64,000 nucleotides of DNA, from the IMG/VR virus record IMGVR_UViG_3300021364_000005; one strand, 5' to 3'. This DNA is from a virus. Its lineage: Duplodnaviria; Caudoviricetes. Positions 12,451 to 33,011 of the stretch are shown piece after piece (the stretch's first letter is position 1; every line of letters begins with the position of its first letter). The position numbers were made by a program, and so were the translations under genes. A model generated the notes under the pieces. That model saw only the letters and a program-made list of their open reading frames with translations. It was not told the DNA's origin and ran no database searches.

Positions 12451-12747
12451 TTAGTTATACTTTAAAAGTGGACAAGCTAACATGAAATAACTAAGTTCTT
12501 TTTGATTTTCAAATCCAACTGTAAGTTTTGTTTGCATTGTTCCATCCTTTACTACGGTTCTTGGAGTAACAAAGTATCTACCTTTTAAGTTTGTATCAAT
12601 CCATCTTGTGATAGAATCTTGTAAGTTATACCTTTGTTCTAAATCAACAGTGTCAAAAAACTCCGGCAAGAAATCTACTTTCCTGTTACCGAATATATTT
12701 AATGGATTTGGTTCTTTAAGCCGCGTCATAGTGAACTGTCTGACCAA
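12451..12747 (-). CDS. Hypothetical protein
   Basis: 98-aa ORF in operon context. Confidence 0.6.
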   Translation of the reverse strand: MVRQFTMTRLKEPNPLNIFGNRKVDFLPEFFDTVDLEQRYNLQDSITRWIDTNLKGRYFVTPRTVVKDGTMQTKLTVGFENQKELSYFMLACPLLKYN

Positions 12748-14029: not shown

Positions 14030-14057
14030 GTTCTAACCCTTTTGCTACTATACTTAT

Positions 14058-14085
14058 ATTATATAGTCTTTCAATTAAAAGTCAA
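14058..14085 (-). promoter_or_regulatory. sigma70-type promoter for the VWA gene
   Basis: TTGACT-16-TATAAT. Confidence 0.7.
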
Positions 14086-14087
14086 GA

Positions 14088-14115
14088 GAAAATGGGTAGT
14101 TTCCTACCCATTTTC
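14088..14115 (-). terminator. Intrinsic terminator after the MoxR gene
   Basis: Perfect 12-bp stem GAAAATGGGTAG/CTACCCATTTTC, GAAA loop, followed by TCTT. Confidence 0.75.
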
Positions 14116-14119
14116 GATA

Positions 14120-17728: not shown

Positions 17729-18142
17729 TTAATTTGTCAAGCAAAATTCTTCCTCAATATACCGTTTTAGTTCATGATCCCCGACATTTTCAGGTAGTTC
17801 TTTTTTATAAAATAGTCTATAACTGTCTGATCCGTACTTACCAATTCCGTATAGTTCTGTTGCATCATTTCCGTCCCAGTCACCGAACTGTTCACTCATG
17901 CGATATAGTCTTTCTGCTCTTATCCTACGCATACCAAGTGGTGCAATTACTTCTTCAATCTCTTTGCGTGTTGCATAAAGCAATGCTTCATGGGTTGGCC
18001 AGCGTTTGAAAAATTTAGGAAGTACAGATTTAACTTGTTTTCTTCCAGTTTGGTTGAGACATATGACACCTACCATATGCTGCCATATGTTATCTACCTG
18101 TTGTTGTACCATTAAATCGTCACGCATGGTTTCCTCATACAT
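17729..18142 (-). CDS. MBD4-like HhH-GPD DNA glycosylase
   Basis: CLNQT...PLG...ELYGIGKYGSDSYRLF...DHEL closely follows the MBD4 glycosylase-domain motifs, including the catalytic Asp. Confidence 0.85.
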   Translation of the reverse strand: MYEETMRDDLMVQQQVDNIWQHMVGVICLNQTGRKQVKSVLPKFFKRWPTHEALLYATRKEIEEVIAPLGMRRIRAERLYRMSEQFGDWDGNDATELYGIGKYGSDSYRLFYKKELPENVGDHELKRYIEEEFCLTN

Positions 18143-18716
18143 AGCTAGTGTTGAAACTTATTACTTGTCTTTTCTCAGTGCTTGTTTCCATTTTAGTCTC
18201 ATGTTCTAACCAGCTAGGAAAGATGTAAAGCGTTAAAGGTTTTGGTTTGACATAGTGATAGTATGTATTATGTTCATTCTCGCCATCGAATAAGTCAAAC
18301 ATCCTGTAAGGTTTAAGAGGGCTATGAAACATCAGTTCGGCACTATCATCTGCGCCTTGCACATACAATGCACCACTGCATACACTTCCTTCGTGTCTAT
18401 GCGGCATCACTTTTGCACCTTTAGATGTTATGTTAGTCCAACAATTTGTAATGCCTAATTTGCGCAAGTTTAATAGTTTCTCGTATTCTGCAATACAAGT
18501 AAACAAAATATCACCTAACCAATCAAAACCTTCTGCATCAGTTAATAAATTTTGATACACAGCATAAGTGCTTACACCATCTCTTATTAAGTCGTGTGTC
18601 TCGCAAACTGATTCTAAATTTTTTAACTGTTCTATTTGGCTTTCATTTATAACTTCTTCTAAATTATATTCTAATATGCTAGTCGGAAAGACGCTATGTA
18701 AGCCAATTTGTATCAT
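18135..18716 (-). CDS. 2OG-Fe(II) oxygenase (TIGR02466-like)
   Basis: PHRH...SGALYV...IFPSWLEH...R-VISFN. Confidence 0.75.
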   Translation of the reverse strand: MIQIGLHSVFPTSILEYNLEEVINESQIEQLKNLESVCETHDLIRDGVSTYAVYQNLLTDAEGFDWLGDILFTCIAEYEKLLNLRKLGITNCWTNITSKGAKVMPHRHEGSVCSGALYVQGADDSAELMFHSPLKPYRMFDLFDGENEHNTYYHYVKPKPLTLYIFPSWLEHETKMETSTEKRQVISFNTSYV

Positions 18717-19114
18717 GAAACTTCGCTTTTGCCTTTATCAATTGGTACAACGTTAATAAACCCTGCACCTCTATCGGTGCTTTGTCCCTCTGCTTCTAAC
18801 ATATTGTAAACAATATCACGGAACCAACGATCCACAATTTCTTCTTCTGGATCACCTTCACTACCGTATCCTGCTGTCATTAGTTCTTGTATAAAATATT
18901 CATTCCAATCTAATTCAAAAAAGCCATTGCGAACATTTTCTTCGTTTACTTTAACATCAAGTACACTTACCCAAGGTTCTTTACGCTTTGTTGCATACGC
19001 TTTAGGATCTTTCTTTTTAAGAAGTTCAGCTTTTTCAGTTTCTATTTGTTTTTTTTCTGCTTCTAAACGCTCTTCTTCTTTTTTGTCTCTTACGAGTTTA
19101 TTCCACCAACCCAT
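18713..19114 (-). CDS. Hypothetical protein
   Basis: 133 aa, coupled start. Confidence 0.65.
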   Translation of the reverse strand: MGWWNKLVRDKKEEERLEAEKKQIETEKAELLKKKDPKAYATKRKEPWVSVLDVKVNEENVRNGFFELDWNEYFIQELMTAGYGSEGDPEEEIVDRWFRDIVYNMLEAEGQSTDRGAGFINVVPIDKGKSEVS

Positions 19115-19269
19115 TATAGTCCTGCCTCCCTAGCACGTTTTTCTAAATCTACGTCTGCTTCTTTACGATTAACTGCATCGTATGAAGGATAACCTTTTTC
19201 AAATACAGGAGCTTCAAATGCTTGTTCATGCTTCTTTGCTTTCTCCACAGTCTTAGGTCCCCCATGCAT
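19114..19269 (-). CDS. Small hypothetical protein (51 aa)
   Basis: Fills the gap between queE and 18713..19114; it is the 3' part of the track ORF 19114..19671. Confidence 0.4.
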   Translation of the reverse strand: MHGGPKTVEKAKKHEQAFEAPVFEKGYPSYDAVNRKEADVDLEKRAREAGL

Positions 19270-20149
19270 TTCCGAATAAGCTAATGTGGAGTCTTGGACT
19301 GAATCGCCATCCTCGCTCCATGCACGAGTTGGCCACTTCTGCCACGTTAAGATTATACTCTTCCGAACGTCCGCCAAGCGGCATAAGATATACTGGACAC
19401 TCGACGCCTGCATCACGATATTCTTGAACAGCACGACCAACTTCTTCAAAGTCGTCCATACTAGCCACGACAAATTTAAAATACTGGCTACTGTTAGTAA
19501 CACTGGCGTAATCACTAGCAACATCAGGCAAGATAGCATCACTCCAAGATTCTCCTGAAACGGAGAGTTTAGGCGAACAACTAAATGTTGTTTTGAATCT
19601 TGCATTGTCTGAAAGATATCGCTTGAAATCTTTGTGTAAAGGTTGTGTAGTGTTTGTTTCAAATGTAACATTTTTTAAGTCCCTCATTTTCGGATGTTCA
19701 AACAGCTCGACATACAGTCGTTGCCAAGCAAGTAATGGCTCACCGCCAGTAAGAATAAGATGAATGTCTTGTCCATTATCCATAGTCCATTTACCTTCTG
19801 GTAGTAAACTAATCAAATGATCAACAACTTCATCTACTTCTGCTAGTTTGTTAAAGTGTTTAAACTCTGGATAGATGCTTGCATATGTATCACAGCCTGT
19901 ATGAATGATAGGCAAGTCCTCAAACTTTTCTGTAGTCTCGTGTACACCTGCATCGAGCAATGCTTTTACTTCTGCATTGTAACGCTGACCTTCTGCGTGC
20001 TGTTCCCAACGATCTTTTTTAGTATCAACACCAAAGTTCATACAACGAAAGTTACAACCAAAGGTACGTAGGAACACACTAGGTACTCCTACGTATTTGC
20101 CTTCGCCTTGTACGCTATAGAACGCTTCACTATACCTCAGTTTCATCAA
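19253..20149 (-). CDS. queE: 7-carboxy-7-deazaguanine synthase (radical SAM)
   Basis: E-FYSVQGEG-YVG-PSVFLRT-GCNFRC...GCDT; LTGGEP; FETN; SPKL; RLH. Confidence 0.9.
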   Translation of the reverse strand: MMKLRYSEAFYSVQGEGKYVGVPSVFLRTFGCNFRCMNFGVDTKKDRWEQHAEGQRYNAEVKALLDAGVHETTEKFEDLPIIHTGCDTYASIYPEFKHFNKLAEVDEVVDHLISLLPEGKWTMDNGQDIHLILTGGEPLLAWQRLYVELFEHPKMRDLKNVTFETNTTQPLHKDFKRYLSDNARFKTTFSCSPKLSVSGESWSDAILPDVASDYASVTNSSQYFKFVVASMDDFEEVGRAVQEYRDAGVECPVYLMPLGGRSEEYNLNVAEVANSCMERGWRFSPRLHISLFGNAWGT

Positions 20150-20414
20150 CGTCCTCCATAATATTTTCTAAATCATCAAACGATGCTACATATTTTTTAT
20201 TTGATCGATCATCTAGTACTTCTACTAATCGACTAGCAGTATCACGTGCAACCAATGCACCTGTGCTTGTGTAATTACCGTATTTTGCAACAGGTAAGTC
20301 TGCCATGCTATACATACCACCTGGACGACCAAATTGATCTAGTGGAATATCTTTTACTGTAAATGTACAGTTGTAAGATTTACCTGGGGTAATATTTTCA
20401 ATTGAAATACTCAT
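20130..20414 (-). CDS. Hypothetical protein
   Basis: ATG overlaps the folE stop (TAATG). Confidence 0.6.
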   Translation of the reverse strand: MSISIENITPGKSYNCTFTVKDIPLDQFGRPGGMYSMADLPVAKYGNYTSTGALVARDTASRLVEVLDDRSNKKYVASFDDLENIMEDVDETEV

Positions 20415-21097
20415 TAGCAAGCAAACTCCTGTTGCAGTTTAATATTGTCAAAGAACTCTTTCTTTGTACCCGGATCGTCTTTAAATGCACCTTTTAGTAC
20501 AGTTGTTTGTGTTAAACTACTATGTGCCATAATGCCACGGTTCTCACAACAACCATGTGTTGCTTGAATATACACACCTAAGTGTTCTGCATTAGTTGCT
20601 AGTTGAATTTGCTTTGCAATTTCGTTTGCAAGTTCTTCTTGCAGTGTTCCACGTCTAGCACACCACTGTGCAATACGTGTATACTTACTAAGTCCAATAA
20701 GTTTCTCAGCGGCAATAATACCAATGTATGCAGTACCTACTACTGGCTGATGATGATGTGAACACATACTTTTTAGTTCTGATCGAACTACAAGCATACC
20801 TTCGTATCGTTCTTCTGAATCATTTGGAAATGCTGTTGCACCCGGCTTTGGATCGTAACGTCCTGCCATAATTTCATTAAAGTACATTTTAGCAAGGCGT
20901 CTTGCTGTACCTTCTGAATTTGGGTCATTAAGACGATCAATTACAAGTGCATCTAGCACACTTTCGAATGCTCTAGTAGCATCGTTAATTAATTCTTCTT
21001 TATCACCACGTTGTAAGACTTGTGAAATATTATCGCCAGCCCAGTAACGGATGCCAGCGTCTTCTAGTTTTTGTTTAATTTGTCTTGCTTTGCTCAA
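20414..21097 (-). CDS. folE: GTP cyclohydrolase I
   Basis: SMCSHH, IGLSK, RR-TLQE, ATHGCCENRG; TTG start with GGAG SD. Confidence 0.95.
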   Translation of the reverse strand: MSKARQIKQKLEDAGIRYWAGDNISQVLQRGDKEELINDATRAFESVLDALVIDRLNDPNSEGTARRLAKMYFNEIMAGRYDPKPGATAFPNDSEERYEGMLVVRSELKSMCSHHHQPVVGTAYIGIIAAEKLIGLSKYTRIAQWCARRGTLQEELANEIAKQIQLATNAEHLGVYIQATHGCCENRGIMAHSSLTQTTVLKGAFKDDPGTKKEFFDNIKLQQEFAC

Positions 21098-21137
21098 TTT
21101 GTTTCTCCGAGTTATAGACGAGGATGTCTATTGTTTT

Positions 21138-21166
21138 AATATACAGTATATTTAGGTTTTTGTCAA
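21138..21166 (-). promoter_or_regulatory. sigma70-type promoter for folE-queE
   Basis: TTGACA-17-TATATT. Confidence 0.75.
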
Positions 21167-21169
21167 CCA

Positions 21170-21415
21170 TTAACCGTTCAATTGTTCTTTTTCATCCAAC
21201 ATATCATCAAGAAAGTATCTTTCAACAATGTCCATTTGATCTTGATATGTTGCCATTTCTGCAAGTTCTTTTTCAATTGCGTCCATGATGTCCGGGTGTT
21301 CGCCAACACCTACAGCATTTTCTAAATATACTTCAATGTTGATTTTATGTTTTTGAATATGTGCATCTGCATGAGCCATTATAGTCTCTAGCATTTTTTG
21401 TTTCATAGTTTTCAT
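21170..21415 (-). CDS. Small hypothetical protein
   Basis: 81 aa; AAGGA SD. Confidence 0.6.
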   Translation of the reverse strand: MKTMKQKMLETIMAHADAHIQKHKINIEVYLENAVGVGEHPDIMDAIEKELAEMATYQDQMDIVERYFLDDMLDEKEQLNG

Positions 21416-21428
21416 GTTAATTTTCCTT

Positions 21429-21998
21429 TTAATAACTTCCCACGTTTTCCCATGGGTACACTAACCATACATCTTTTTCTTCTTTATTAACTTCATCGCA
21501 GTAATAGTTAACCTTGTGCGAAAAGTTACTAGACAAGTTATCCGTTAGTACGGCAAAACGGACATTATTACCGAATACATTATTCCAAACATCATCGCCT
21601 GGTAAACAACTAGATTTCCAATCCTTTATAAGCCAATTAAATGTTGCACCTGTATCGTTGATGTCATCTACAATAAGTATGTTCTTTTTCTTTTGAGGAT
21701 TATGGGTAGATGTTGGATAAAGATCATCTCTATCTCTAACTTCTTCGTAACCGTATGCATCTTCGGCCATCCAACAATTACTTTCTAAATGACTATCATC
21801 GTCACGTAAAGCTATTTTAAGTGCTTCGCAACGGATACCAGTCATATTACTTATAATAGTTGCAGGCACATTGCCTCCTCTGGTTATTCCTATGATGTAA
21901 TCCGGGCGCCAATTATCAGCATACATTTGATTAACTATGCTGACACACATATTTTCTACATCAGTCCATGAATAAATCTTCTTAGAAGGGGATGTCAT
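21429..21998 (-). CDS. Type I purine phosphoribosyltransferase (gpt/hpt-like)
   Basis: IIGITRGG and the PRPP-binding ILIVDDINDTGATF; C-terminal W-VYPWE. Confidence 0.85.
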   Translation of the reverse strand: MTSPSKKIYSWTDVENMCVSIVNQMYADNWRPDYIIGITRGGNVPATIISNMTGIRCEALKIALRDDDSHLESNCWMAEDAYGYEEVRDRDDLYPTSTHNPQKKKNILIVDDINDTGATFNWLIKDWKSSCLPGDDVWNNVFGNNVRFAVLTDNLSSNFSHKVNYYCDEVNKEEKDVWLVYPWENVGSY

Positions 21999-22398
21999 CG
22001 TCTAAACCTCGTTCTTTTAATTTGCCTTTGTAATCCTGTTCGCACATTTTATATATTGTTTTGAAATTATCATATGCTTTTTTAAGTGCAGGATATTCAT
22101 CACACATATTATCTATTTTCTCTAATTCTGGCATCACATCCTTAAACTCAGTTGCAGTAATTGTAATGTTATTTAGGTCAAAAGTTACATCACTTGAGTC
22201 AACTATGCCATCTAAACTTATTGTATACATACCGTCAACGTTTGATGTTGCTAAAGTATCAGTAGTATTAATAGTAATAGTGCTTGGACTTACTGTATCA
22301 TATGCAACACTATAAGTCATATCGTCATAAGGAGAAAAGGAACTTGCCTCTTCTAGGGTGATATAAACTTGATCATCGTCGTCTTTCTTTTTAGACAT
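21982..22398 (-). CDS. Acidic hypothetical protein
   Basis: Start moved to the ATG at 22398 (MSKKKDDD). Confidence 0.55.
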   Translation of the reverse strand: MSKKKDDDDQVYITLEEASSFSPYDDMTYSVAYDTVSPSTITINTTDTLATSNVDGMYTISLDGIVDSSDVTFDLNNITITATEFKDVMPELEKIDNMCDEYPALKKAYDNFKTIYKMCEQDYKGKLKERGLDDDIPF

Positions 22399-23437
22399 CT
22401 GATATGGTCCTATATAATGCGTTTCCACTAAAATAATCTTTGTTCAGTTTCATACGCTGCTTTTCTAAACTTACAATATAATCATCGTAATTTTCCATAT
22501 AGTCAACAATCTTAGCAGTAACATTGCCTCTATATTTTCTATATGAAGAATAATCTTCAGTCCAATCACTTGGATATTTGAATTCAGGAAGTGCCATTTC
22601 GCTATAGCTTAGTCTATCTGGAACCATTGGAATAGCATCTACAAGAGCACCTTCATACCAACTAATACCAAGTGTTTCTTGTAAGTTAGCACTAAACACA
22701 AGTTTTGCTTCACCTAGCAAATTATGGTATTCATTCTTTGTAAGTGTTTGTTCTTGACAAACTATAAACTCGTATTGTGGTAATTGTGCTTTAAGATCAT
22801 GGAATATATCTACTTGTTTTTCCGGAGCAATACGATGCGGGAAAAGAATAAGATCACGCTTTTCCATACCTTTGTAACTATCTAAACTGTTCTTTAGATA
22901 CTCCATAGGCCAGCCTACACGATGAGTTTTATCATCATCTATATCTAAACTTTCAGCAAATAGATCTATATGGAAGTCACTTGCAAAGAAGTTATCGTCA
23001 TAGCATTCATACATTGACTGCTCGGCATGACGTACCCAAGGCTTGTCGCCAATTAATCTTCCGAGGAAGTCTTGGGGATCATAACTTCCGGCGTGCCATA
23101 AGCCCCCAATACGGACATCCACGCCGAGTAATTCTGCCATGTAGCGTAGTTGTATAACAGTAGGGTTCCAAGCATCTGTGTATAAAAAGTAGTCATCGGT
23201 TTTAACTGTTCCATTACAAAACATTTCTCCAATTTGTTCTAGTTGTTTTGATTTATAAACATTAGTTCCGCCAAAATTGAGAAAAGCCCCAGGCGTAGTA
23301 GCCTGCGGCGTTTCCCCTCCGCTGATAACAACGACATCTTCATTTGTAGATCGTTCGAGCTGTTGTGGAAGGTGATCCTTCCATTGCTTAGTATAGCGTG
23401 TGTCAACTGCTTCTATATCTACAATATAAATAGTCAT
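22391..23437 (-). CDS. GT-B fold glycosyltransferase (GT4-like)
   Basis: FPHRIAPEKQ donor-binding loop; Y-NLLGEAK-VFSA-LQETLGIS-YEG-LV-AIP-VPD (E-x7-E motif). Confidence 0.85.
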   Translation of the reverse strand: MTIYIVDIEAVDTRYTKQWKDHLPQQLERSTNEDVVVISGGETPQATTPGAFLNFGGTNVYKSKQLEQIGEMFCNGTVKTDDYFLYTDAWNPTVIQLRYMAELLGVDVRIGGLWHAGSYDPQDFLGRLIGDKPWVRHAEQSMYECYDDNFFASDFHIDLFAESLDIDDDKTHRVGWPMEYLKNSLDSYKGMEKRDLILFPHRIAPEKQVDIFHDLKAQLPQYEFIVCQEQTLTKNEYHNLLGEAKLVFSANLQETLGISWYEGALVDAIPMVPDRLSYSEMALPEFKYPSDWTEDYSSYRKYRGNVTAKIVDYMENYDDYIVSLEKQRMKLNKDYFSGNALYRTISDV

Positions 23438-23649
23438 TAATTACTCCGTTGTTGAAACTTTCGTTGTGCGTGACGGTTCTTTGCACGAATCCAATTTAGG
23501 TGCTTCTGATATGCTTCCCATATAGGAGCTCCTTTTTTATACAAATCGGCTTCGTCAAACTTCTTGCCTTCAAAGCGGCAATAGTCACGAAACTTATCCA
23601 AATCGTTAAACACCTTAGTGTACGCTTCACGATTGAATTTAATAGACAT
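23437..23649 (-). CDS. Small hypothetical protein
   Basis: 70 aa; GAGG SD; coupled to the GT gene. Confidence 0.6.
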   Translation of the reverse strand: MSIKFNREAYTKVFNDLDKFRDYCRFEGKKFDEADLYKKGAPIWEAYQKHLNWIRAKNRHAQRKFQQRSN

Positions 23650-23664
23650 TTTCTCATATTCCTC

Positions 23665-24117
23665 TTATGATTGCTTAGGATAAATGTTGTGGCAGCCATT
23701 TTCTCCATCTTCGGAGACTTCGATAACAACAAAGCGGCCTGGATACTTTGTGTTAATTTCTTCATATAGGTCATCTGCAATCATCTCGCAAGACTTATAA
23801 TCAAGATTTAGTACATCATCTTTATAAAGATTTTCTAACCAGCGTTTGAACTGGATAAATTCAATTTCTCTGTCACTGTGTTTGACACTAATTGTAACTT
23901 TAAAATGGAACATATGGCGATGAGGATAACCTAAAAAGCTAACATCATACTCATCGCCTGTTGCTAGAGCAGGATCTTCTAGTGCCGCAGGATATTTATG
24001 AATTCCTTCCTTTTGAAAAGTGACCCAAATACTGCGGTTTACTTTCGATTCCATATAAATTTTCTTATCTTCTTCTCGCATCATGCGTAACATACCTTCA
24101 TAATAACGTTCTTGCAT
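23665..24117 (-). CDS. queD: QueD-like T-fold protein (6-carboxytetrahydropterin synthase or the DpdL paralog)
   Basis: Metal-binding His triad (EGIH...HRH-F), IEFIQFK, SCE-IA, V-EDGEN. Confidence 0.75.
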   Translation of the reverse strand: MQERYYEGMLRMMREEDKKIYMESKVNRSIWVTFQKEGIHKYPAALEDPALATGDEYDVSFLGYPHRHMFHFKVTISVKHSDREIEFIQFKRWLENLYKDDVLNLDYKSCEMIADDLYEEINTKYPGRFVVIEVSEDGENGCHNIYPKQS

Positions 24118-24124
24118 TGTTTAT

Positions 24125-24153
24125 AGTATACTTTCATAGTAAGATCTTGTCAA
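24125..24153 (-). promoter_or_regulatory. sigma70-type promoter for the queD-GT-PRT unit
   Basis: TTGACA-17-TATACT, nested in the 3' end of 24134..24667. Confidence 0.75.
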
Positions 24154-24667
24154 GTCCATATTTGCTCCAATCTGTAAATTTTTCTCTATCTAACAGATCG
24201 TGCAAACTATGACACCAGACACCTGGGTTGGACGCCTTAAAGTCTTTATCATCAATTTTCAACATAGTGTTGTAATTCCACTGTTTCACGTAAGGCACCG
24301 GAACGCGAAGTTGTGGGATAAAATTGTCATATTCAATTAAGCCTGATTCTAAAAATGCTTCAGCAAGTGCAATAGGAATATCTAAACTACAAAGATAACC
24401 TTCATCAAGGAACTCTGTAATCATATCTTCCCATTCACTCCATTCGTCTGCATCTTCTGGAAAATTAGTACCAGGATTAAAACTATGATTTGCACCAAAG
24501 AACAAGTGCTGACACTTTTCTTTTGTAAAGAATGTCATAATTTCTTCAGTATCTTGAATACCTTCAATAAAAAGTGTTTTCATTTTATATGCAGGAGTCT
24601 TTTCTACTTCGTAACCTGTAAAGTAGCAAACCTTTTCTACAATACCTTCTTCGTAATCTCTTTTCAT
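24134..24667 (-). CDS. Globular hypothetical protein within the dpd cluster
   Basis: 177 aa, coupled; no family recognised. Confidence 0.7.
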   Translation of the reverse strand: MKRDYEEGIVEKVCYFTGYEVEKTPAYKMKTLFIEGIQDTEEIMTFFTKEKCQHLFFGANHSFNPGTNFPEDADEWSEWEDMITEFLDEGYLCSLDIPIALAEAFLESGLIEYDNFIPQLRVPVPYVKQWNYNTMLKIDDKDFKASNPGVWCHSLHDLLDREKFTDWSKYGLDKILL

Positions 24668-24867
24668 CCTAATGCCTTTAGTTCAGTTTCGAGTCTGTGT
24701 ATTTCATCTTTGAGCCAAAGTTTTTGAGTTTTAAGCCTGTTTACTTTGTTATCATCTTCCCACTTATTATACAACTCTTTTACTTCGTCGTCAAGTGCTC
24801 TATGTTTCCGATATAATTCTTGTAAATGGGTTGCAATTTTATTGTGCTTCTCAGTAAAATTACTCAT
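24664..24867 (-). CDS. DUF465/YdcH-like small coiled-coil protein
   Basis: H-ALDD-V...LKTQKLWLKDEI pattern. Confidence 0.7.
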   Translation of the reverse strand: MSNFTEKHNKIATHLQELYRKHRALDDEVKELYNKWEDDNKVNRLKTQKLWLKDEIHRLETELKALG

Positions 24868-26318
24868 TCAAACAACTCCCCAAATTTAGTTTGTGCATTT
24901 ACAGTTTTCTTACCAGTGGCACCCCGTGTGCCAATGATGCTCATCCAGAAGCGGCTGTATTCTTCTACAAGTGCTTCTGCTTTTTGCCGGTCATCCGTTG
25001 CGAATATTTCGTCCACAACATCTCTGAAAAATAGCCTGTCAAAACGCTCTTCCACAAGCATTGCCGGAAGTATTCCGTTGTCGTATTGTCTATTTGCTTC
25101 TTGTACTGCATTAATGTGCATCCATACGTTATGCCCCATCATGATAGCATATGAAAAACTATCCCATGAGGTCTTGCCTTCTTTGCCTATTTTATTTAGA
25201 TCACCTGGACCATATATACAAATATCTTTGGCTTGAAGTTCTGCTGTAATCGGACTATCCATAAAGCTAGGATGTTTGCCTTCTCGAACGAATGCTTGCC
25301 CGAACTGAGTAGTATCTTGTGCAAGTGACTTATCATCTATACTAGGCACCATTCGATATACCCATTTAGTGCGATCTTGTGTTTCAAGTTCACAATAAAT
25401 CTGTCCATTAGCAGTTGCAAGGAATGGAGAAGCACAATCAAACGTAATAGTAAAGTTTTCATTGTGATATTTGCGTACTGCTCTTTGGATATCTGTTAAT
25501 AATGTAGCCCATTCGAGCTTTGAAGTACCTAAGAAGTGCATTACATCATGTATGCCTTTCTCAAGCAATCCGTCAAATCGCAGTGCAACCAAACGCTTGA
25601 GTGCAAGATGAACATCACACATATTTTGTCCACCCATCGACCAACCGTTGAAATGATCATTTGGATATTTCTTAGGATCACAATAATCCTTCATCTGGTT
25701 GTACCAGTCATCCGCATCGGCGTGATTTTCACCTTGGAGAACATTAAGGAACTTACAAGCACCTGTTCGATGTTTCATCCAATAATCATTGTTAATACGT
25801 GTTGCTTTTACTGCTTCTGCATATGTACTAATGCCTGTTGCTTTTGCACCTTCCGGAGAACGTGCAACCCAGGCTGGAATATCAAGTATCATTCCATAGT
25901 CCATATATGCGTCCATCCACTTCAAAACGCCATCACGTTTCTTTTGTGCCTTTGGACAATTTGGATCTTTCCAGTCACCTTCCCAAACACCCTTACCAAT
26001 TTGGAAGCCACCTGAGTCACCAAGTAGCCAAGTGTTTTGTCTATCTCTATTACGCACCATGTCTTCTTTAGGAGCAAACTTATTGACATCTAAGTCAGCG
26101 TGTCCGGCACTATACAAACTCCATTTGTAAGTAAACTGTCCTTCCTGTGCATTTAGATAATTTAAACTTTCAACTCCGTGTGTAAGGTTAGAAGGTATTC
26201 TGGACTTATCCACATATTCTTCATGACGTTGCTTACCTACATAGGTAGCATAAAAGCCACTTAGTGCGGGCAAAAAACGTGCATAATCATTTTGTGTTGC
26301 GGTTAAATCTTTATTCAT
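24864..26318 (-). CDS. dpdA: TGT-fold guanine transglycosylase acting on DNA (DpdA family)
   Basis: GDSGGFQ, MILDIP, NVLQG, MGG, HFLG and FDCASP TGT motifs; clustered with folE, queD and queE. Confidence 0.85.
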   Translation of the reverse strand: MNKDLTATQNDYARFLPALSGFYATYVGKQRHEEYVDKSRIPSNLTHGVESLNYLNAQEGQFTYKWSLYSAGHADLDVNKFAPKEDMVRNRDRQNTWLLGDSGGFQIGKGVWEGDWKDPNCPKAQKKRDGVLKWMDAYMDYGMILDIPAWVARSPEGAKATGISTYAEAVKATRINNDYWMKHRTGACKFLNVLQGENHADADDWYNQMKDYCDPKKYPNDHFNGWSMGGQNMCDVHLALKRLVALRFDGLLEKGIHDVMHFLGTSKLEWATLLTDIQRAVRKYHNENFTITFDCASPFLATANGQIYCELETQDRTKWVYRMVPSIDDKSLAQDTTQFGQAFVREGKHPSFMDSPITAELQAKDICIYGPGDLNKIGKEGKTSWDSFSYAIMMGHNVWMHINAVQEANRQYDNGILPAMLVEERFDRLFFRDVVDEIFATDDRQKAEALVEEYSRFWMSIIGTRGATGKKTVNAQTKFGELFE

Positions 26319-26515
26319 TAATCTTTCACGTTTAAATTGCTTGGGCTATATTGTTCACCATTATAGCCACTTCCAGATCCATCTACACCTGAGTTGCAAG
26401 CAAATACAACTAAGCATAGAAAGAAAGCACTCCACAGTGTAGCTCGTTTACTCCAAAGGATGAATCCATCCATTGCTTCTTCGGCTTGTTTCTGTGCTTG
26501 CTCTGCTGGTGTCAT
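26318..26515 (-). CDS. Single-TM peptide resembling aa3-type cytochrome c oxidase subunit IV
   Basis: Q-EE-MDGFILWS-R...hydrophobic helix...NS resembles the Rhodobacter/Paracoccus CtaH pattern (by eye). Confidence 0.5.
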   Translation of the reverse strand: MTPAEQAQKQAEEAMDGFILWSKRATLWSAFFLCLVVFACNSGVDGSGSGYNGEQYSPSNLNVKD

Positions 26516-27243
26516 TACTTACTCTGTGCTGGCAGGATATAGTCATACTTGGCCATACCGCTGTCTACTGAAATCATCATTGCACCTTGATCTGAGATAC
26601 TCATTGTTGCATCACCATCTAAGTTTAAAATACTTTGAACTTGTGCTACTGGCCAACTCCATGTATGTGCAAGTGTTCCTTCAATACCATGTTGGAAAAC
26701 AAACTCACCTGCGTGTGTACTTGCATCACCAAAGCTAAACACTAGATTTCCGTCTTTAGTACTAACATTAAATGTTGGTTCTTCTGAGTGTGCAGCACTC
26801 ATTAGCTTCATACGTGCAATACTTGCTACACTTGGACTAAAAGTAATCTGCCATTGTGCGCCTTTAAACTTTACAGTTTTAAGTTTTTCTTCAATAATTG
26901 CTTTGTTCATAAAGCGATAATCATTTTGAAAGTCGCCTGCTGCGTTTTCAAAGTGAATGTGTGTTGGAACAACCTCTCCATTACGTTCTGCTGTTACAAC
27001 TTCAATTTTTGCATCCTTTTGATATTCCGGATTTTTCAAATGCAAGCTAAGTTTGTCTAAATTTGGCATACCAAATGTGTCAACAAACTCTGATACAGGC
27101 GAGTGTGTTTCTGCACTTAGGATAACACTTCGATCGTCTGCCATTGAATCAATTAAAGTGCCTTCGTCGTTCTGCACTTTTACAATGCTTAGGAAGCCTA
27201 ATGCATGGGTGTGTGCAACAATGTCTTGTAAGATATCTTTCAT
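26515..27243 (-). CDS. Sliding clamp (gp45/PCNA-like)
   Basis: Size and two-domain beta pattern; ends in YDYILPAQ; own promoter; a clamp loader is in the window. Confidence 0.7.
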   Translation of the reverse strand: MKDILQDIVAHTHALGFLSIVKVQNDEGTLIDSMADDRSVILSAETHSPVSEFVDTFGMPNLDKLSLHLKNPEYQKDAKIEVVTAERNGEVVPTHIHFENAAGDFQNDYRFMNKAIIEEKLKTVKFKGAQWQITFSPSVASIARMKLMSAAHSEEPTFNVSTKDGNLVFSFGDASTHAGEFVFQHGIEGTLAHTWSWPVAQVQSILNLDGDATMSISDQGAMMISVDSGMAKYDYILPAQSK

Positions 27244-27989
27244 ACTGTTTCTCCATTCTTAAATTCTATTATATTGCCTAATTTGTTGTTTGTCAAGAGT
27301 TTTTCTACTGAGTATTTAGGTTTAAAGCCTAAACTTTTTATTTTATCCATATTGGCGCAAGTCCAACTCCGTTCATTCGGGGTATTTAGACGAATTGGCA
27401 AGTCAGGTGCAAAGTCACGGATTCTAAATGGATGGCCTGTGCCTATGTCTATTTCGCCTGTTAGTTTACTATTCATACAAAGTTCTATTGCATCACATAA
27501 ATCTTCTATATGTATAAAGTCTCTGTAATGATTAGTTACATAATCTAGTTCATTGTCTATAAGTTTTTGCAAAAACATACCTTTTCTAGGAGCATATGAG
27601 AAAACTGTATGAAATCTCATGCATAATGTATTAACATAACAAGCTGCTGCTTCTTCGACAATGTATTTGCTTGCAGCGTAAGGATTTAAATGTGGTTCGT
27701 AAATAGAACTAGAACTTGCAATTAACATACGTGTTTCTGGATAACGTTCTAATAGTCTTTTTGTGACCTCTACGTTATTACGCCAGTAGCCTGCAGGATC
27801 GTCCATACTTTCACGCACACCGCTTTTACCAGCAAGATGTATTATTAGGTCAAAGTTTTCACGTAAAGGAATATCTAATAGATCCTGACCGTCTATTAAG
27901 TCAAAGCCTACGACACTATGGTGTCGTGTGAGCCGTTTAAGCAAGTGACTTCCTATAAATCCTCTATGACCCGTTAGACATATATGCAT
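27240..27989 (-). CDS. NAD-dependent nucleotide-sugar epimerase/dehydratase (extended SDR)
   Basis: TGHRGFIGS, HLAG, SSSS, YAASK. Confidence 0.9.
   Translation of the reverse strand: MHICLTGHRGFIGSHLLKRLTRHHSVVGFDLIDGQDLLDIPLRENFDLIIHLAGKSGVRESMDDPAGYWRNNVEVTKRLLERYPETRMLIASSSSIYEPHLNPYAASKYIVEEAAACYVNTLCMRFHTVFSYAPRKGMFLQKLIDNELDYVTNHYRDFIHIEDLCDAIELCMNSKLTGEIDIGTGHPFRIRDFAPDLPIRLNTPNERSWTCANMDKIKSLGFKPKYSVEKLLTNNKLGNIIEFKNGETV
27268..27296 (-). promoter_or_regulatory. sigma70-type promoter for the clamp-dpdA unit
   Basis: TTGACA-17-TATAAT (perfect consensus), nested in the epimerase 3' end. Confidence 0.8.
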
Positions 27990-28671
27990 TTAATTTACTC
28001 CAAGTGTCTTGCCAACCATTGACACTATAATTCATACCATTTTTATTTGCTTGAGCTAATGGAAAATCATTACCATCTTCATCCATTCTATCACCAAAAA
28101 ACAAGATAGTATCGTTTTGGCTAAAATCTCGCATTATTTGGCTTTTATCTGCTCCTACAGGAAAAATATCTATTCCTGTTTCTCCGCCTACCACAGCTTC
28201 TATATCTGGAAACTTTTGTTTAAACATTTTTGCTATAGTAACTCGTTCTTCTGTTCTTTCGTCATGCTGAACATACAATTTGCGCTCACCAAGAGTTGCG
28301 TTTCTTCCTACAACACTAAAATTACACATACCAGGCCTGTCTTCTATGTGTAATCCTGTACGTAGAGGAAACTTACTTAGTGCTAATTCTTCACGCAGCC
28401 ACGCTTCTGCCTCTTCTGGTATACTCCATGTATTTGTAAAAACATTATTATTTTGCTCCCATACATCATTACCGGAACAGTTGTAAACCTTAACTGCTAA
28501 GTTGTATATTGTTGCGCCTACCTGTTCTATAGTTTTGTCTCTATCTGATCCAGTCACAAGGTACACAGCATTATGGGTTGCAAATTGTTCAAACCAAGCT
28601 GCAAATTCTTTATCCATTTTTCCACGGCTTGGGGTAAGTGTGCCGTCTACATCAAATATAAATTTAGACAT
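27964..28671 (-). CDS. Phosphomannomutase, HAD-IIB (eukaryote-type PMM-like)
   Basis: FDVDGTLTP-R; R-GM-NFS-VGR; GGETGIDIFP-G-DK; FFGDR---GND. Confidence 0.85.
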   Translation of the reverse strand: MSKFIFDVDGTLTPSRGKMDKEFAAWFEQFATHNAVYLVTGSDRDKTIEQVGATIYNLAVKVYNCSGNDVWEQNNNVFTNTWSIPEEAEAWLREELALSKFPLRTGLHIEDRPGMCNFSVVGRNATLGERKLYVQHDERTEERVTIAKMFKQKFPDIEAVVGGETGIDIFPVGADKSQIMRDFSQNDTILFFGDRMDEDGNDFPLAQANKNGMNYSVNGWQDTWSKLNAYMSNGS

Positions 28672-29083
28672 TGTTTTGCCTTTCTGCTACCCGCTTTCGC
28701 AAATCACTGGACGAGAAGCGGTGATCTCTTTTGTTAAAGTATAGCTGGATACCCCGCTTCTTGCAAATATCCTTGCCCGTAAAATCCTTTTCACGATACT
28801 CTTCTCCTAATATTCTAACATCAATTTGGTACATTGTCAAGATATCATTTAGGTCTTCTTCAGTGCCGTAAGGAATAATTTCATCTACGTACCCTACTGC
28901 TTTAAGTTGTGTATACCTTTCTACAATAGTTTGTATAGGAGAATTTTTTTCTGATCTATCTATGCTTGGATCAACCTGCAATCCACATATTAGATAGTCG
29001 CATTGTTCTTTTGCTTCACGTAACATTTGTACGTGACCTGCGTGTAATAAATCAAATGTTGAACAAGTAAATCCTACTTTCAT
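28664..29083 (-). CDS. TagD-like cytidylyltransferase
   Basis: STFDLLHAGH (HIGH), VDE-IPY, R-H-FSSS-LR. Confidence 0.9.
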   Translation of the reverse strand: MKVGFTCSTFDLLHAGHVQMLREAKEQCDYLICGLQVDPSIDRSEKNSPIQTIVERYTQLKAVGYVDEIIPYGTEEDLNDILTMYQIDVRILGEEYREKDFTGKDICKKRGIQLYFNKRDHRFSSSDLRKRVAERQNNV

Positions 29084-29796
29084 GATACAAATGCCTTTTC
29101 TTGTACAAAAGTTCCTGCTTGCTTTTTGTTACCTTCATTCCAGCCCCAGTCATTCAACATATCTTTAACATCATTATTAAAAGGCATACTACCACATATC
29201 ATAACTTTATCCTTTTCAGGTGTAGCACCAGTTAGTATTACGCCGGCACTCATTGCTGTTGTTATACGTTTATTTAGGCCCTGCCATTCTCTGTCTTGTG
29301 TAACAATGGGTGTGTAATCGATAGGAAGTTCTTGTAAGAAATCATTATATGCAAGCAATTCCGGCATACTTCGCACACTCCAAACAACATGAATATTATC
29401 AAAACTATCAAAAGTTTCCGGATCTCTTAGTAAACTGATAAATGGAGCGATTCCAGTACCAGTTGCTAACATCCATAAGTCTCCTTTTAATTCTAAATTT
29501 GCTAAAATTAAAGTACCTGTTGCTTTAGAACCTACCTCTAATTGGTCTCCAACTTTTATGTGTTGTAACTTACTTGTTAATGGGCCGTCTTGCACCTTAA
29601 TGCTATAAAACTCTAAGTAGTCATCGTATGGTCCGCTTGTAATGCTGTATGCTCTGCGTATGTCATCATCAGGAAATCCTATCATTACAAATTCTCCTGC
29701 TGTAAATCTATATGATTTAGGACGATTACATTGTATTTTAAATAACCTATCAGTGTAGTGTTCAACACTTGTCACTGTAAGAGTTTCATAGCTCAT
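29080..29796 (-). CDS. fpr: Ferredoxin(flavodoxin)-NADP+ reductase, bacterial subclass I
   Basis: RAYSI, FYSIKV-DGPLTS-LQ, ATGTGIAPF, MICGS, EKAFV C-terminus. Confidence 0.92.
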   Translation of the reverse strand: MSYETLTVTSVEHYTDRLFKIQCNRPKSYRFTAGEFVMIGFPDDDIRRAYSITSGPYDDYLEFYSIKVQDGPLTSKLQHIKVGDQLEVGSKATGTLILANLELKGDLWMLATGTGIAPFISLLRDPETFDSFDNIHVVWSVRSMPELLAYNDFLQELPIDYTPIVTQDREWQGLNKRITTAMSAGVILTGATPEKDKVMICGSMPFNNDVKDMLNDWGWNEGNKKQAGTFVQEKAFVS

Positions 29797-30041
29797 TTAT
29801 CTTCCTCTGGTAGTTTTATTACATTATTTTCATTAGCAAGCATATTTTCCTTAATGTCATATACTTGCTCGCTTTTAATCATATTAATAATTGTATTTGT
29901 CAAACTTACTTCTTGGCGTAAGTATCCAATCTTACGTTGCAATTCTTCTAGCTCTTTTAGATAAAATTCTAATTCTTGTTCCTTACGTAACTTCTGTTCA
30001 ATAAAGTCAGTAATTAGAATTAGTTTTTGTTCTTCGCTCAT
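29793..30041 (-). CDS. Coiled-coil hypothetical protein
   Basis: ATGA coupling at 30041. Confidence 0.6.
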   Translation of the reverse strand: MSEEQKLILITDFIEQKLRKEQELEFYLKELEELQRKIGYLRQEVSLTNTIINMIKSEQVYDIKENMLANENNVIKLPEEDK

Positions 30042-30316
30042 TGCACTAGCGTACTCCATTTACGAAGTTTTTCACGTTTGACGTTAGCTCTATCTTCCAA
30101 GTCAATCCATTTGCAAACATTATGTTGCACCATAAGTTCTAGCATACAATAAACGTCACCAAGTTCTTCGATTAGCTTTTGCTCTTGATCGTATTCAATT
30201 TCGTTTACAGTGTTGTATTTCCGCATAATTTTACTACAACGTTGTGTTAGTTCACCACATTCTTCCATAGTAATACACATAAGTTGTTGTAAATCATTGA
30301 TAGGGCTGTCTTCCAT
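30038..30316 (-). CDS. MazG-like NTP pyrophosphohydrolase
   Basis: EECGEL...EELGDV; start moved to the ATG at 30316 after GGAGA. Confidence 0.75.
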   Translation of the reverse strand: MEDSPINDLQQLMCITMEECGELTQRCSKIMRKYNTVNEIEYDQEQKLIEELGDVYCMLELMVQHNVCKWIDLEDRANVKREKLRKWSTLVQ

Positions 30317-30317
30317 T

Positions 30318-33011
30318 TTAATCTCCAAAGTCAAATAAACTTGTAAATGTGTTAGATTGTTTTGTGCTATCGATATCATAGTTTAGCACACCAATTAAGT
30401 TATCAATTTTATTATCAATAATAGTTGCTTCCATAGCATCGCCATCAAATGGCAATTCTTTGAACCAATCTGGCAAACGCAATTCATCTGTTGGATATGC
30501 AACACTTGTATACCCTAATGGATTCTGCTTGAGTTTGCACACAATAACTTTCATACCATCTACAATCTCTTGCGAATACTTGTCACCATTCATACGCTTC
30601 AGTGTGTTCCAGTTAATGCTTGCTCTAACGTGCCCTGGCATATTTGCCTTGCCTTGCTTTTCTTCAAGACGCTGATAGTGCCCAATTTTGTTAGCACGTT
30701 TAGGAGCACCTTTTTCCCAACCCGGTCTATTTTTAAAATCACGCCTAAAGTCAGTAATACGTTCTAGTATTTCTTTTTCGCCTTTTTCTTGTAGTACCAT
30801 CATCAGCACTTCGCTTAGAAACTCTTGCATATACACAGGTGTGTCTGATCTACGCAAGTCTAAGCCCATTGCTTTTACTTTGCCTGGCTTGCCATCTGTG
30901 TCTGAACGGAAGCCTTCAACATCATATACCAATGCTGCATAACGTTTCTTTGTAATGTACAAGCCGCTTTCAGCAACAATCTCTCTACCTGCTGCAATAA
31001 CGTCTGATCGGCTCTTTGGACAGTGAAATGCTTTTTGCATAAAGTCTTGGAATGTGCTATTTGCCTCTTCTGCGACTTGATCATATAGAGTAATTACATT
31101 GTCTTTACTCCATGGAATAGATCCGTTGTCAATTTGTTGTTTTAATACAGGATATGCACTAAAATACACAGAGTCTGTATCACCATATATTACGCTTTCA
31201 CCTACATGATCATAGGATCCTGTAATAACTTTGTTAACTTCTGCTGACATATGCTTTACAATAGTACGGCCTGATAATGTAGTACTTTGTCCAATACGTT
31301 TATCAAAAAAGCGACAGCCAGGGTTAAGAATGGCACCATAAAGACTGTTAAGGTTAATTTTCTTAACCAACTGACGTTTGTCCCAAAAAGCGATTTCTGC
31401 TTCATTTCCTGCATCCTTTGCTTTCTTAAGCATTTTCTGTAGATCTTTTCTTTCCGCATACCACCTCTTTAGAATTCCAGGAATAACACCTTCAAATTCT
31501 GTTGTAAAAATTGTGCCATTTGAACTTAGCATCCAAGGCATATTACTGTCAAATATTAGTTTGTAAATTTCTGCTCCACTTAGTACGTCTGAACGACCGT
31601 CTTCCCAGTCAATAGTTAGAGCAATGTCTTTGCGTTGGTCCATAACTGCTTCATATTCTTCTGTACTGAAGCGTCCTTCCCATGAACCTGCAAATGACTT
31701 TTTCTTAAGCGTCATATCTTCATGAACACGAGCTTCTGACATCTCAGGACGTATTTGTCCTACAATAGTTTCTGGAGCCATATTCAATGCACGAATCACA
31801 CTTGGATACAGACTGTTCAAGTCCATTGAACCAATCCATTTGTGAACACCTTTTTTAGGAAATGCAACATAAGCACCAGCGGCTGCTGTATTCTCATCAT
31901 CACGCTTTGGACGATTAGGAACTTGTAATCCTCTATCATGTGCTTCATTAATAATTGCTTGTTCTGTAACAGCAACAGCACCCATAGTTGTTTGTAGCAA
32001 AACAGTATTTGCGTGTGCCAGCTCGTTTGAAAGATCAATAAATCTTAGTTTTTTGTCCAGCTTGTCTAGTAGTGCAACGTCTTGTCTATTATATTCGATA
32101 AATGTTTCAAAGTCGTTGTTGTATAACTGATCAAGTGTTCCTTCATATACTGTTTTACGTTCACCAACTTCAAGTTCGCCAATAGCATCAAGACGATATG
32201 TGTGTCTTTCTTCATATGTGTATTTGCGATATAATTCTAAACTGTCTAAATGCACTCTGCCCACAAAGTCATAAGTTTCACTTGTTTTTCCAAACTTTTC
32301 GTATTCACGTTTTTTAGGCAGTTGTCCCCATAAGCAAAAACGTCTTGTGTCATCTGTACTTAAAACACGTTTAATTCTGTTAACAGTATACGGAACATCA
32401 TAACCTTCACTATTCCAGCCACTAAAGATATCTGCATCCTCTAGCAAATCAAGGAATGTAAGAAGCATTTGTCTCTCACCATTTCCTTCTTTGTCGTTTG
32501 GATATAAAATAACATCATCGCCCCAGCGATCTTTACACATTTTTTGTGCTTCTTCAAAAGGTAATCCCTTTGGCGGAACTGCAAGTGTAATAAGTGCATC
32601 GAGCCATTGTAAATGTACAGTGATAGCTGTAATTGGCATAAACGGATCTTCAACTGGAGCAAATCCTCGCTCTGGATCAAAGTCGGTCTCGATATCCCAA
32701 AACGCAACATTTAATTTAGGTGCGTCTTGATTAAGATAATTTTCACTTAAACATTGAAATATTGGATTAATATCGCTTTCGAATAAGTCTTTGCCTTTGT
32801 TTATTGCAATTTCTTTACGAAAGTCTTTTGTATTTTTGCAAACAATACGTGTTAGATTGTCGCCATATACACTTTTGTATTTGCCACGTTCGTCTTTATA
32901 ATAAAACGTGTATTTTGCTTGGTATTCTCTAAAATCTCTTTTACCATCTTTGCGTTCAACACATCTAATAATGTCTTGGTCGCGATCAAAGAAAGCATCT
33001 ACGTAACTCAT
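30318..33011 (-). CDS. polB: Family B DNA polymerase (gp43-like)
   Basis: ExoI WDIETD, DLNSLYPS, K-NLNSLYG, YGDTDS, KKRY; no intein visible. Confidence 0.97.
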   Translation of the reverse strand: MSYVDAFFDRDQDIIRCVERKDGKRDFREYQAKYTFYYKDERGKYKSVYGDNLTRIVCKNTKDFRKEIAINKGKDLFESDINPIFQCLSENYLNQDAPKLNVAFWDIETDFDPERGFAPVEDPFMPITAITVHLQWLDALITLAVPPKGLPFEEAQKMCKDRWGDDVILYPNDKEGNGERQMLLTFLDLLEDADIFSGWNSEGYDVPYTVNRIKRVLSTDDTRRFCLWGQLPKKREYEKFGKTSETYDFVGRVHLDSLELYRKYTYEERHTYRLDAIGELEVGERKTVYEGTLDQLYNNDFETFIEYNRQDVALLDKLDKKLRFIDLSNELAHANTVLLQTTMGAVAVTEQAIINEAHDRGLQVPNRPKRDDENTAAAGAYVAFPKKGVHKWIGSMDLNSLYPSVIRALNMAPETIVGQIRPEMSEARVHEDMTLKKKSFAGSWEGRFSTEEYEAVMDQRKDIALTIDWEDGRSDVLSGAEIYKLIFDSNMPWMLSSNGTIFTTEFEGVIPGILKRWYAERKDLQKMLKKAKDAGNEAEIAFWDKRQLVKKINLNSLYGAILNPGCRFFDKRIGQSTTLSGRTIVKHMSAEVNKVITGSYDHVGESVIYGDTDSVYFSAYPVLKQQIDNGSIPWSKDNVITLYDQVAEEANSTFQDFMQKAFHCPKSRSDVIAAGREIVAESGLYITKKRYAALVYDVEGFRSDTDGKPGKVKAMGLDLRRSDTPVYMQEFLSEVLMMVLQEKGEKEILERITDFRRDFKNRPGWEKGAPKRANKIGHYQRLEEKQGKANMPGHVRASINWNTLKRMNGDKYSQEIVDGMKVIVCKLKQNPLGYTSVAYPTDELRLPDWFKELPFDGDAMEATIIDNKIDNLIGVLNYDIDSTKQSNTFTSLFDFGD

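Follow-up and report, generated by a model that had tools for sequence, protein, structure and literature searches.

The glycosyltransferase and its neighbours DpdL and DpdA

We analysed a 64,000 nucleotide stretch of DNA (IMG/VR record IMGVR_UViG_3300021364_000005, hereafter the window) that stems from an uncultured marine jumbo myovirus and carries its replication module. The window holds a set of genes for 7-deazaguanine modification of DNA, and among these a gene for a glycosyltransferase (GT). All genes of this deazaguanine region are encoded on the minus strand, with little space between them. In brief, the GT (P0001, 348 amino acids (aa), 22391..23437) lies close to the QueD-paralogous T-fold protein DpdL (P0003, 23665..24117), the alpha/beta protein P4 (P0004, 177 aa, 24134..24667) and a distant DNA transglycosylase of the DpdA/TGT superfamily (P0002, 484 aa, 24864..26318). 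An earlier reading, made from the sequence alone, took the GT as a sign of a sugar-bearing 7-deazaguanine in the phage DNA, and all the genes it named are present on the minus strand at the coordinates given here. Judged by sequence, gene order and predicted fold, the GT is a conserved, dedicated member of a QueC-less, DpdL-type cluster predicted to carry out 7-deazaguanine DNA modification.

P0001 is a real GT4-type GT-B enzyme. The protein itself gave no match in Pfam, PHROG, NCBIfam or PDB sequence searches. PF00534 (Glycos_transf_1) was matched by 45 of 58 diverse P0001 homologues (E <= 0.1, best 1.3e-8), and a profile of the family matched 8xsg, which is AmGGT (PMC12159676), at 2e-5 and in the C-terminal domain only. 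An AlphaFold2 model of P0001 (pLDDT 96.6, pTM 0.93) has the GT4 GT-B fold, which agrees with the GT-B call of the sequence-only reading. Residues 1-347 of the model align with BshA, MshA and GlgM at a Foldseek probability of 1.00, and the structural neighbours, which also include PimB', PglA, LmbT and 2-deoxystreptamine GTs, were found at E 1e-9 to 1e-11 and TM 0.6-0.7. Among the best 50 BFVD matches only the ACP17 orthologue (TM 0.93) and one other viral protein (TM 0.82) were close.

An EX7E motif is formed by E254 and E262, of which E262 is invariant; E254, R202 and K207 are found in >=90% of 55 sequences. By comparison with PimA/MshA-type enzymes, EX7E, R202 and K207 are consistent with an active nucleoside diphosphate (NDP) sugar site. 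The N-terminal acceptor domain matches zero Pfam families and has a conserved acidic and aromatic set of its own (E9, Y15, W19, F52, D82, D88, W90, Y99, H115, D120, D123, E139 and D147). The family comprises at least 8,000 sequences among the matches listed, forming 1,192 clusters at 50% identity (E <= 1e-3), and the Atlas clusters nearest to P0001 are almost all viral.

Gene context was compared in 80 IMG/VR loci with GT homologues 58-69% identical to P0001, a subset of at least 597 IMG/VR matches. Counts out of 80 are lower bounds because contigs end early, and many metagenome contigs with GT homologues are too short for gene context. Wherever the contig reaches, there is one order: PolB, sliding clamp, DpdA, P4, DpdL, (a 70-aa open reading frame, ORF), GT, (a 148-aa ORF), a purine phosphoribosyltransferase (PRTase), FolE, QueE and a 133-aa ORF. 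DpdL was found in 75 of the loci, P4 in 73, DpdA in 69, FolE in 67, the clamp in 66, PolB in 65, QueE in 58 and the PRTase in 54.

The GT also adjoins DpdL and/or DpdA in Sinorhizobium phage Phosso, the PA5oct group, Acidovorax phage ACP17, Xanthomonas phages X1/BUDD, Burkholderia phage BCSR5 and Synechococcus phage BUCT-ZZ01, and likewise in a separate metagenomic lineage (loci L009 and L108-L110). We count approximately six independent cultured GT-DpdL lineages and two metagenomic ones. The surrounding gene order is shuffled between lineages and two DpdA clades are involved, so that simple inherited synteny does not explain the adjacency. DpdL is present in 18 of 23 GT-family records, as against 28 DpdL records among 50,697 phage records (Fisher p = 6e-58, uncorrected for relatedness). 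The linkage of the GT with the deazaguanine genes is far beyond chance, and it is more general than a single genome, extending from the window phage to seven or more further phage lineages.

Synteny and co-occurrence of the GT with dpdA had been put forward as a check on the sequence-only reading, and both are evident in the fixed order of the 80 loci. The adjacency with DpdL/DpdA stands in about eight lineages, but the GT tracks the DpdL branch and not DpdA as such. This follows from the QueC-type phages searched, including Vibrio phage 2.275.O, in none of which we found the GT. Whole-record searches with a working positive control found none in pf16, nt-1 and Ps15. Vibrio phage 2.275.O has the DpdA clade and the PolB-clamp-DpdA layout of the window, but it carries QueC, QueF and an amidotransferase; we did not find a GT or DpdL in its DpdA region or by tblastn of all phage records. 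In this phage (L116, record 322312-340000), the DpdA layout is followed by QueF, a YhhQ-like transporter, QueC, the amidotransferase and FolE, and a 370-aa hypothetical protein directly after DpdA falls outside this GT family.

Locus L015 is the closest relative, with flanks 85-97% identical to the window, whereas P4, DpdL, the GT and the PRTase are only 64-69% identical, as if these four genes moved or evolved as one cassette. Two loci carry two paralogous GTs in one deazaguanine cluster, L108 at 1584-2639 and 9986-11095 and L109 at 4772-5956 and 10001-11095; in L108 an MDR alcohol-dehydrogenase-like gene is followed by a P4-like gene, the second GT and FolE. The paralogues might serve a second sugar, a disaccharide or an alternative sugar.

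By its motif and alignment, the gene at 23665-24117 is DpdL, a QueD paralogue for which a role as decarboxylase of 7-carboxy-7-deazaguanine (CDG) has been proposed. The sequence-only reading had called it QueD-like. The motif LxxxHRHxF, in place of CxxxHGH in QueD, defines DpdL, and decarboxylation of CDG to 7-deazaguanine has been proposed as its reaction (Cui, Hutinet et al. 2023, PMC10516641). P0003 carries L-GYP-HRH-M-F (LGYPHRHMF), whereas canonical QueDs in the same alignment have C/S-xx-HGY. It gave no direct Pfam match; by tblastn it matched phiST at 2e-8 and ACP17 at 8e-36. A canonical QueD is absent from the window, and in large contigs of relatives it lies approximately 55 kb from the module. 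QueC is absent from all five complete GT-bearing phage genomes, so that side chains of the preQ0, preQ1 and queuosine type cannot be made. Four PP-loop proteins at 2199-9630 of the window were considered as QueC and rejected, with 18-19 bits against a Pfam cut-off of 22 and a match to the N-terminal PP-loop only.

P0002 is a distant DpdA/TGT-superfamily protein that keeps the catalytic motifs, and guanine exchange in DNA is predicted from these. It carries DSGGFQ (101-106), LDIP (D146), LQGEN (Q195), HFLG (261-264) and FDCASP (D294), and D101-S-G-G-F-Q106, D146, Q195-G196 and F293-D294-C295 are invariant across 26 orthologues. We presume these to correspond to the TGT residues, namely the DSGGFQ Asp, the substrate-binding Asp, the QG pair and the nucleophile Asp of FDC. 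By hhalign, a profile of the window DpdA (A3) matched a profile of established phage DpdAs (A5; ACP17, X1, BCSR5, BUCT-ZZ01, pf16, nt-1 and Ps15) with 88% probability, E 2.9e-6, over 192 columns and with the motifs aligned. The GT profile (A2), used as negative control, gave 0.1% probability against A5. A hidden Markov model of ACP17/nt-1-type DpdAs matched P0002 orthologues at 1e-5 to 1e-6, and Atlas features of P0002 point to TGT and DpdA clusters. P0002 had no Pfam, PHROG, NCBIfam or PDB sequence match, and profile-to-PDB searches with A3 and A5 gave nothing meaningful. Among the phage loci tested, which did not include phiST, profile A3 matched only proteins of the PA5oct group and L009.

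Neighbouring genes and flanking regions

P4 adjoins DpdA in the window and in ACP17. It was not found in searches of the cluster regions of Phosso, the PA5oct group, X1, BCSR5 and BUCT-ZZ01. Its model (pLDDT 87) had no PDB structural match at E <= 0.001, the best being HpcH-type aldolase fragments at TM 0.33; a profile-to-PDB search (A4) gave nothing meaningful and an Atlas search no usable match. We regard P4 as a candidate new component of the pathway.

The PRTase and the precursor genes lie downstream of the GT. A type I purine PRTase, xanthine/guanine PRTase-like (21429..21998), was identified by Pfam, with NCBIfam matches below the curated cut-off; it is also present in the PA5oct-group and BUCT-ZZ01 clusters, and likely salvages the guanine released by DpdA. 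FolE, GTP cyclohydrolase I (20414..21097), matched Pfam at 1.5e-38. A QueE-like radical SAM CDG synthase (19253..20149) has a weak Pfam radical-SAM match, and every family match is below the curated cut-offs, yet five QueE models matched and there are phage QueE homologues.

Several small ORFs are interspersed between these genes. The 70-aa ORF between DpdL and the GT (23437..23649) recurs in 46 of the 80 loci. Immediately downstream of the GT, an acidic ORF of 148 aa (21982..22428; 34 loci) has a weak homologue in the PA5oct group, and the 133-aa ORF after QueE (18713..19114; 51 loci) has homologues in the PA5oct group and Phosso. A small DUF465 protein between DpdA and P4 (24664..24867) was found in five loci only, and is therefore not part of the core.

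A PCNA-like sliding clamp (26515..27243) is encoded between PolB (30318-33011, identified by Pfam) and DpdA, and it fixes the deazaguanine module inside the replication genes. PolB of the window is 43-49% identical to PolB of Phosso, Atu_ph07, Vibrio phage 2.275.O and large E. coli jumbo phages, and the first three are the nearest PolB relatives of the window phage. Megablast of window positions 20000-30000 against cultured phages gave zero matches; near-identical DNA was found in seawater, marine and marsh metagenomes. Scans of the window for tRNAs and Rfam families were empty.

The sequence-only reading placed a promoter shared by the QueD-like gene and the GT at 24125-24153. A putative sigma-70-like match (TTGACA-17-TATACT, 11/12 consensus, minus strand) does exist there, upstream of DpdL, with its -10 element ending 8 nucleotides before the DpdL ATG. 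It should be noted that promoter-like sites are not enriched in the region, with 43 found versus 52.6 in shuffled sequences.

Other genes are recorded here as side observations. Directly after PolB, a MazG-like nucleotide pyrophosphohydrolase (30038-30379, minus strand) may clean the dGTP pool; the MazG of phiST also adjoins its DpdL. Directly downstream of the deazaguanine module (17729-18716, minus strand), a 2OG-Fe(II) oxygenase (PF13759) is overlapped at its start by a small HhH-GPD glycosylase-like protein (137 aa, 1.1e-8); each was found in one of the 80 loci. Phosso encodes an unrelated "glycosylase" between the clamp and DpdL. Further away, a tailoring island on both strands (166-9630) encodes a fatty-acid-desaturase-like protein, a B12-binding radical SAM protein, a radical SAM-SPASM enzyme, an NMO/IMPDH-like flavin oxidoreductase, a DUF2061 membrane protein and two PP-loop proteins, whose N-terminal QueC matches stay under the Pfam threshold (18-19 bits against 22), so that they do not count as QueC. 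The gene at 9578-11167 (minus strand) encodes 529 aa with an Mtd_N (major tropism determinant N-terminal) domain (1.3e-11), and its product may be a receptor-binding protein or the target of a diversity-generating retroelement. A DUF2201 metallopeptidase/VWA-like protein and a MoxR-like AAA ATPase form a pair at 12716-15205 on the minus strand.

Proposed product, acceptor and sugar donor

Based on the gene content, we propose the following route. FolE would convert GTP to H2NTP, a QueD encoded elsewhere in the genome would form CPH4, and QueE would form CDG. DpdL would process CDG, and decarboxylation to 7-deazaguanine is the proposal in the literature. The divergent DpdA would exchange genomic guanine for the deazapurine, and the guanine set free in this exchange would re-enter the GTP pool through the PRTase. 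The GT would glycosylate the DpdL-branch deazapurine with a nucleotide sugar as donor, which probably comes from the host. The product would be phage DNA with a glycosylated 7-deazaguanine derivative, for which the candidate linkages are a C-glycoside at C7 or C8, N2, or the carboxylate of CDG; the GT could act on the free base, the nucleotide or DNA.

We infer that the acceptor is a deazapurine and that the sugar ends up in DNA, and the modified atom and the stage of action are inferred in the same way. That the GT works in the deazaguanine pathway is well supported, and we hold it with good confidence. Going by gene content, the chance that virion DNA carries the sugar appears roughly even. 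The explanation as a whole, a glycosylated DpdL-branch deazapurine in phage DNA, is one that we favour slightly on present sequence evidence, and the system is a strong candidate for a new DNA hypermodification. The wider claim, that widespread phages (abundant jumbo myoviruses of marine and fresh water, the PA5oct group of Pseudomonas phages, which are therapy candidates, ACP17, Phosso, X1/BUDD, BCSR5 and a cyanophage) replace guanine with glycosylated 7-deazaguanine, is more tentative, and we place it a little short of even.

A number of observations weigh against a sugar on a DNA base. 7-deazaguanine, the proposed product of DpdL, has no hydroxyl, and the linkage would therefore have to be a C-, N- or acyl-glycoside. 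Whole-record searches with a positive control found no GT in the DpdL phages phiST, RHph_I1_18, Bakedbeans, Ahp1, D479 and MA9V-3; with six DpdL lineages lacking it, including phiST with plain dDG, the GT is an add-on. Distant members of the GT family (in PhiXhv/Ep phages and L007) are found in other contexts without DpdL, and relatives of the window phage carry a ThyA-like gene, which we return to below. P0001 has an acidic pI of 4.7 (family median 5.7) and few conserved basic residues in its N-terminal domain. Its nearest folds are enzymes with small-molecule acceptors, not nucleic acids, and for these reasons action at the DNA level is not favoured. The comparison with T4 AGT and BGT suggested in the sequence-only reading did not bring out a likeness, as neither is among the best 50 Foldseek matches in PDB or BFVD. 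The product of the GT might thus never reach DNA.

The GT may on this account act only on a soluble intermediate of the pathway, leaving plain dDG or dCDG as the final DNA base; the glycosylated compound might be a transient glycosyl or acyl-glycosyl intermediate, a storage form or a detoxified form. Small molecules are the acceptors of the nearest folds (BshA, MshA, GlgM, LmbT and the 2-deoxystreptamine GTs), the protein is acidic, and the GT is linked most tightly to DpdL, the proposed free-base enzyme. The PRTase in the cassette suggests chemistry at the level of base or nucleotide, and there is a precedent in huimycin, where HuiG glycosylates a free 7-deazapurine. However, phiST makes dDG with DpdL and no GT, so the GT is not needed for dDG, no precedent is known in the pathway for spending an NDP-sugar on such a transient product, and PA5oct is targeted by nucleases that sense hypermodification. 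We consider a purely soluble role unlikely, though it deserves to be kept in mind. As to the stage at which a DNA-bound sugar would be added, a soluble acceptor is suggested by the acidic surface and by GT4 neighbours that use small molecules, whereas the T4 and QTMAN precedents suggest addition after incorporation.

The GT could also have a target unrelated to deazaguanine and merely sit in an early or replication gene block. Candidate targets are a hydroxymethyl- or hydroxy-pyrimidine in DNA, host tRNA queuosine, a phage or host protein, and an envelope glycan. A member of the thymidylate synthase (TS) family is required for 5hmC, 5hmU and 5hoC nucleotides. The sequence-only reading saw no pyrimidine pathway in the window, and indeed a TS homologue is not detectable there, nor in ACP17, X1 or BUCT-ZZ01, three of the five complete GT-bearing genomes. 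In these three genomes there is therefore no hydroxymethyl-pyrimidine acceptor. An unrelated target would be consistent with the TS-family gene in relatives of the window phage and in two cultured GT-bearing phages; the TS of the relatives, however, bears the ThyA motifs PPCH and PFNIASY and scores approximately 350 bits. It would also be consistent with distant GT-family members that are accompanied by GlmS or deacetylase genes, or by a further GT4, in the absence of DpdL.

A tRNA target was examined through QTMAN. This identity for the GT was rejected, since QTMAN_N (PF12038) was not matched in any of five GT-bearing genomes (E <= 10), and QTMAN is not among the top 30 Swiss-Prot fold matches of P0001. 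Against any unrelated target stand the adjacency with DpdL/DpdA, which holds over about eight lineages and two DpdA clades despite shuffling, and the absence of the GT from the QueC-type deazaguanine phages examined. We therefore regard an unrelated target as very unlikely, and a role in the deazaguanine pathway as the better account. One of the distant family members, in the 7-kb contig L007 (845-4791), is 35% identical, and its neighbours are a PurT-like ATP-grasp enzyme, a NUDIX hydrolase, a PRTase and another canonical GT4. DpdL, DpdA and FolE were not seen in this contig, which may encode a different purine-linked system.

The source of the sugar was addressed through three genes between PolB and the clamp, which lie just upstream of the clamp-dpdA unit as the sequence-only reading had noted. 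Pfam confirmed an NAD-dependent sugar epimerase/dehydratase-family protein (249 aa, 27240..27989, 6.9e-24), a HAD-IIB protein of the eukaryote-type phosphomannomutase (PMM) family (27964..28671, 2.6e-25) and a cytidylyl/adenylyltransferase-like protein (139 aa, 28664..29083, 6.7e-15). From these the sequence-only reading concluded that the phage makes its own activated sugar, which the GT would place on deazaguanine. The genes are real, the trio is kept in the three closest relatives, and five other loci have a gene for a homologous nucleotidyltransferase between P4 and DpdL. The full trio is, however, present in only three of the 80 GT-bearing loci (epimerase 3, PMM 3, nucleotidyltransferase 8), as an insertion found only in the closest relatives of the window, and in none of the annotated cultured-phage clusters, among which the PA5oct group alone has a short epimerase-domain gene.

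The epimerase is short, apparently truncated, and below every NCBIfam equivalog cut-off. The nearest models of the nucleotidyltransferase are HldE domain II (heptose-1-P) and TagD (glycerol-3-P), both below cut-off, and not a hexose-1-P enzyme. PMM and epimerase are 58-61% identical to their L015 counterparts, against 85-97% for flanking genes. The trio is a lineage-specific insertion and not a core part of the system, and the claim of a phage-made sugar is weakened accordingly; we consider it clearly unlikely. The GT is probably independent of the trio and uses host nucleotide sugars.

Comparison with known systems

To our knowledge, all sugar-bearing phage DNA bases are pyrimidines, and the deazaguanines known from DNA (dPreQ0, dPreQ1, dG+, dADG, dDG, dCDG, mdPreQ1 and fdPreQ1) are all without sugar. 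The literature that we searched in full text does not describe a 7-deazaguanine with a sugar in DNA, of which the sequence-only reading likewise knew no example, nor this GT in a dpd context. If true, a glycosylated deazapurine would add a chemical class to the known DNA hypermodifications and be the first sugar-bearing purine analogue in DNA, and it would probably require unusual glycosyltransferase chemistry.

The GT hypothesis may also explain two earlier observations. Expression of ACP17 dpdL and dpdA in E. coli gave no dDG (PMC10516641), which may be due to a missing enzyme. PA5oct DNA resists restriction enzymes with G-containing sites and is targeted by hypermodification-sensing END nucleases, and the base was not identified (PMC12191111); a hypermodified G may account for both. 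The GT family is very large and almost entirely viral, so that the modification may be frequent in aquatic viromes, with possible effects on the sequencing of such DNA and on handling that relies on restriction. PA5oct, ACP17, Phosso, X1, BCSR5 and BUCT-ZZ01 are carriers in culture, and the proposal is thus directly testable by liquid chromatography-tandem mass spectrometry (LC-MS/MS) of nucleosides.

The system most similar to that of the window is the DpdL/DpdA3 system of phiST (PMC10516641). Both combine FolE, QueD, QueE, DpdL and a divergent DpdA, lack QueC and lie near replication genes, and the DpdL motif LxxxHRHxF is common to both. In contrast to the window, the phiST record has no GT of this family, and phiST DNA carries plain dDG. 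The window DpdA is placed in another clade, though the A3 test left out phiST.

T4 AGT and BGT and related DNA GTs, acting on 5hmC, 5hoC and 5hmU, are likewise phage GT-B enzymes encoded among DNA-metabolism genes. They place a sugar on a non-canonical base and counter restriction, which is what we predict for the GT of the window. This GT differs in belonging to the GT4 retaining fold class, in its presumed acceptor, a purine analogue, in the lack of TS homologues in three complete GT-bearing genomes, and in its best 50 structural matches, which do not include AGT or BGT.

QTMAN (GTDC1) and QTGAL add mannose and galactose, respectively, to a 7-deazaguanine derivative in nucleic acid, the queuosine of animal tRNA, and QTMAN is also a GT4-like GT-B enzyme. 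Their tRNA acceptor is the cyclopentenediol of Q, which is not makeable here as QueC and the later enzymes are missing. HuiG of the huimycin/dapiramicin type is a GT acting on a 7-deazapurine base from the FolE-QueD-QueE pathway, and an N-glycoside has been reported for huimycin. It differs in belonging to actinomycete secondary metabolism, where the acceptor is the free base of O-methylated preQ0, no transglycosylase takes part and the product is never found in nucleic acid. BshA and MshA are the best structural matches of P0001 and have in common with it the C-terminal NDP-sugar domain with EX7E, but sequence identity is only 11-15%, and the N-terminal domain of P0001 has no Pfam match and conserved residues of its own.

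The window thus encodes a predicted system for 7-deazaguanine DNA modification, which is of a known kind. The new part is the dedicated GT and, should the proposed chemistry prove right, a class of DNA base not described before.

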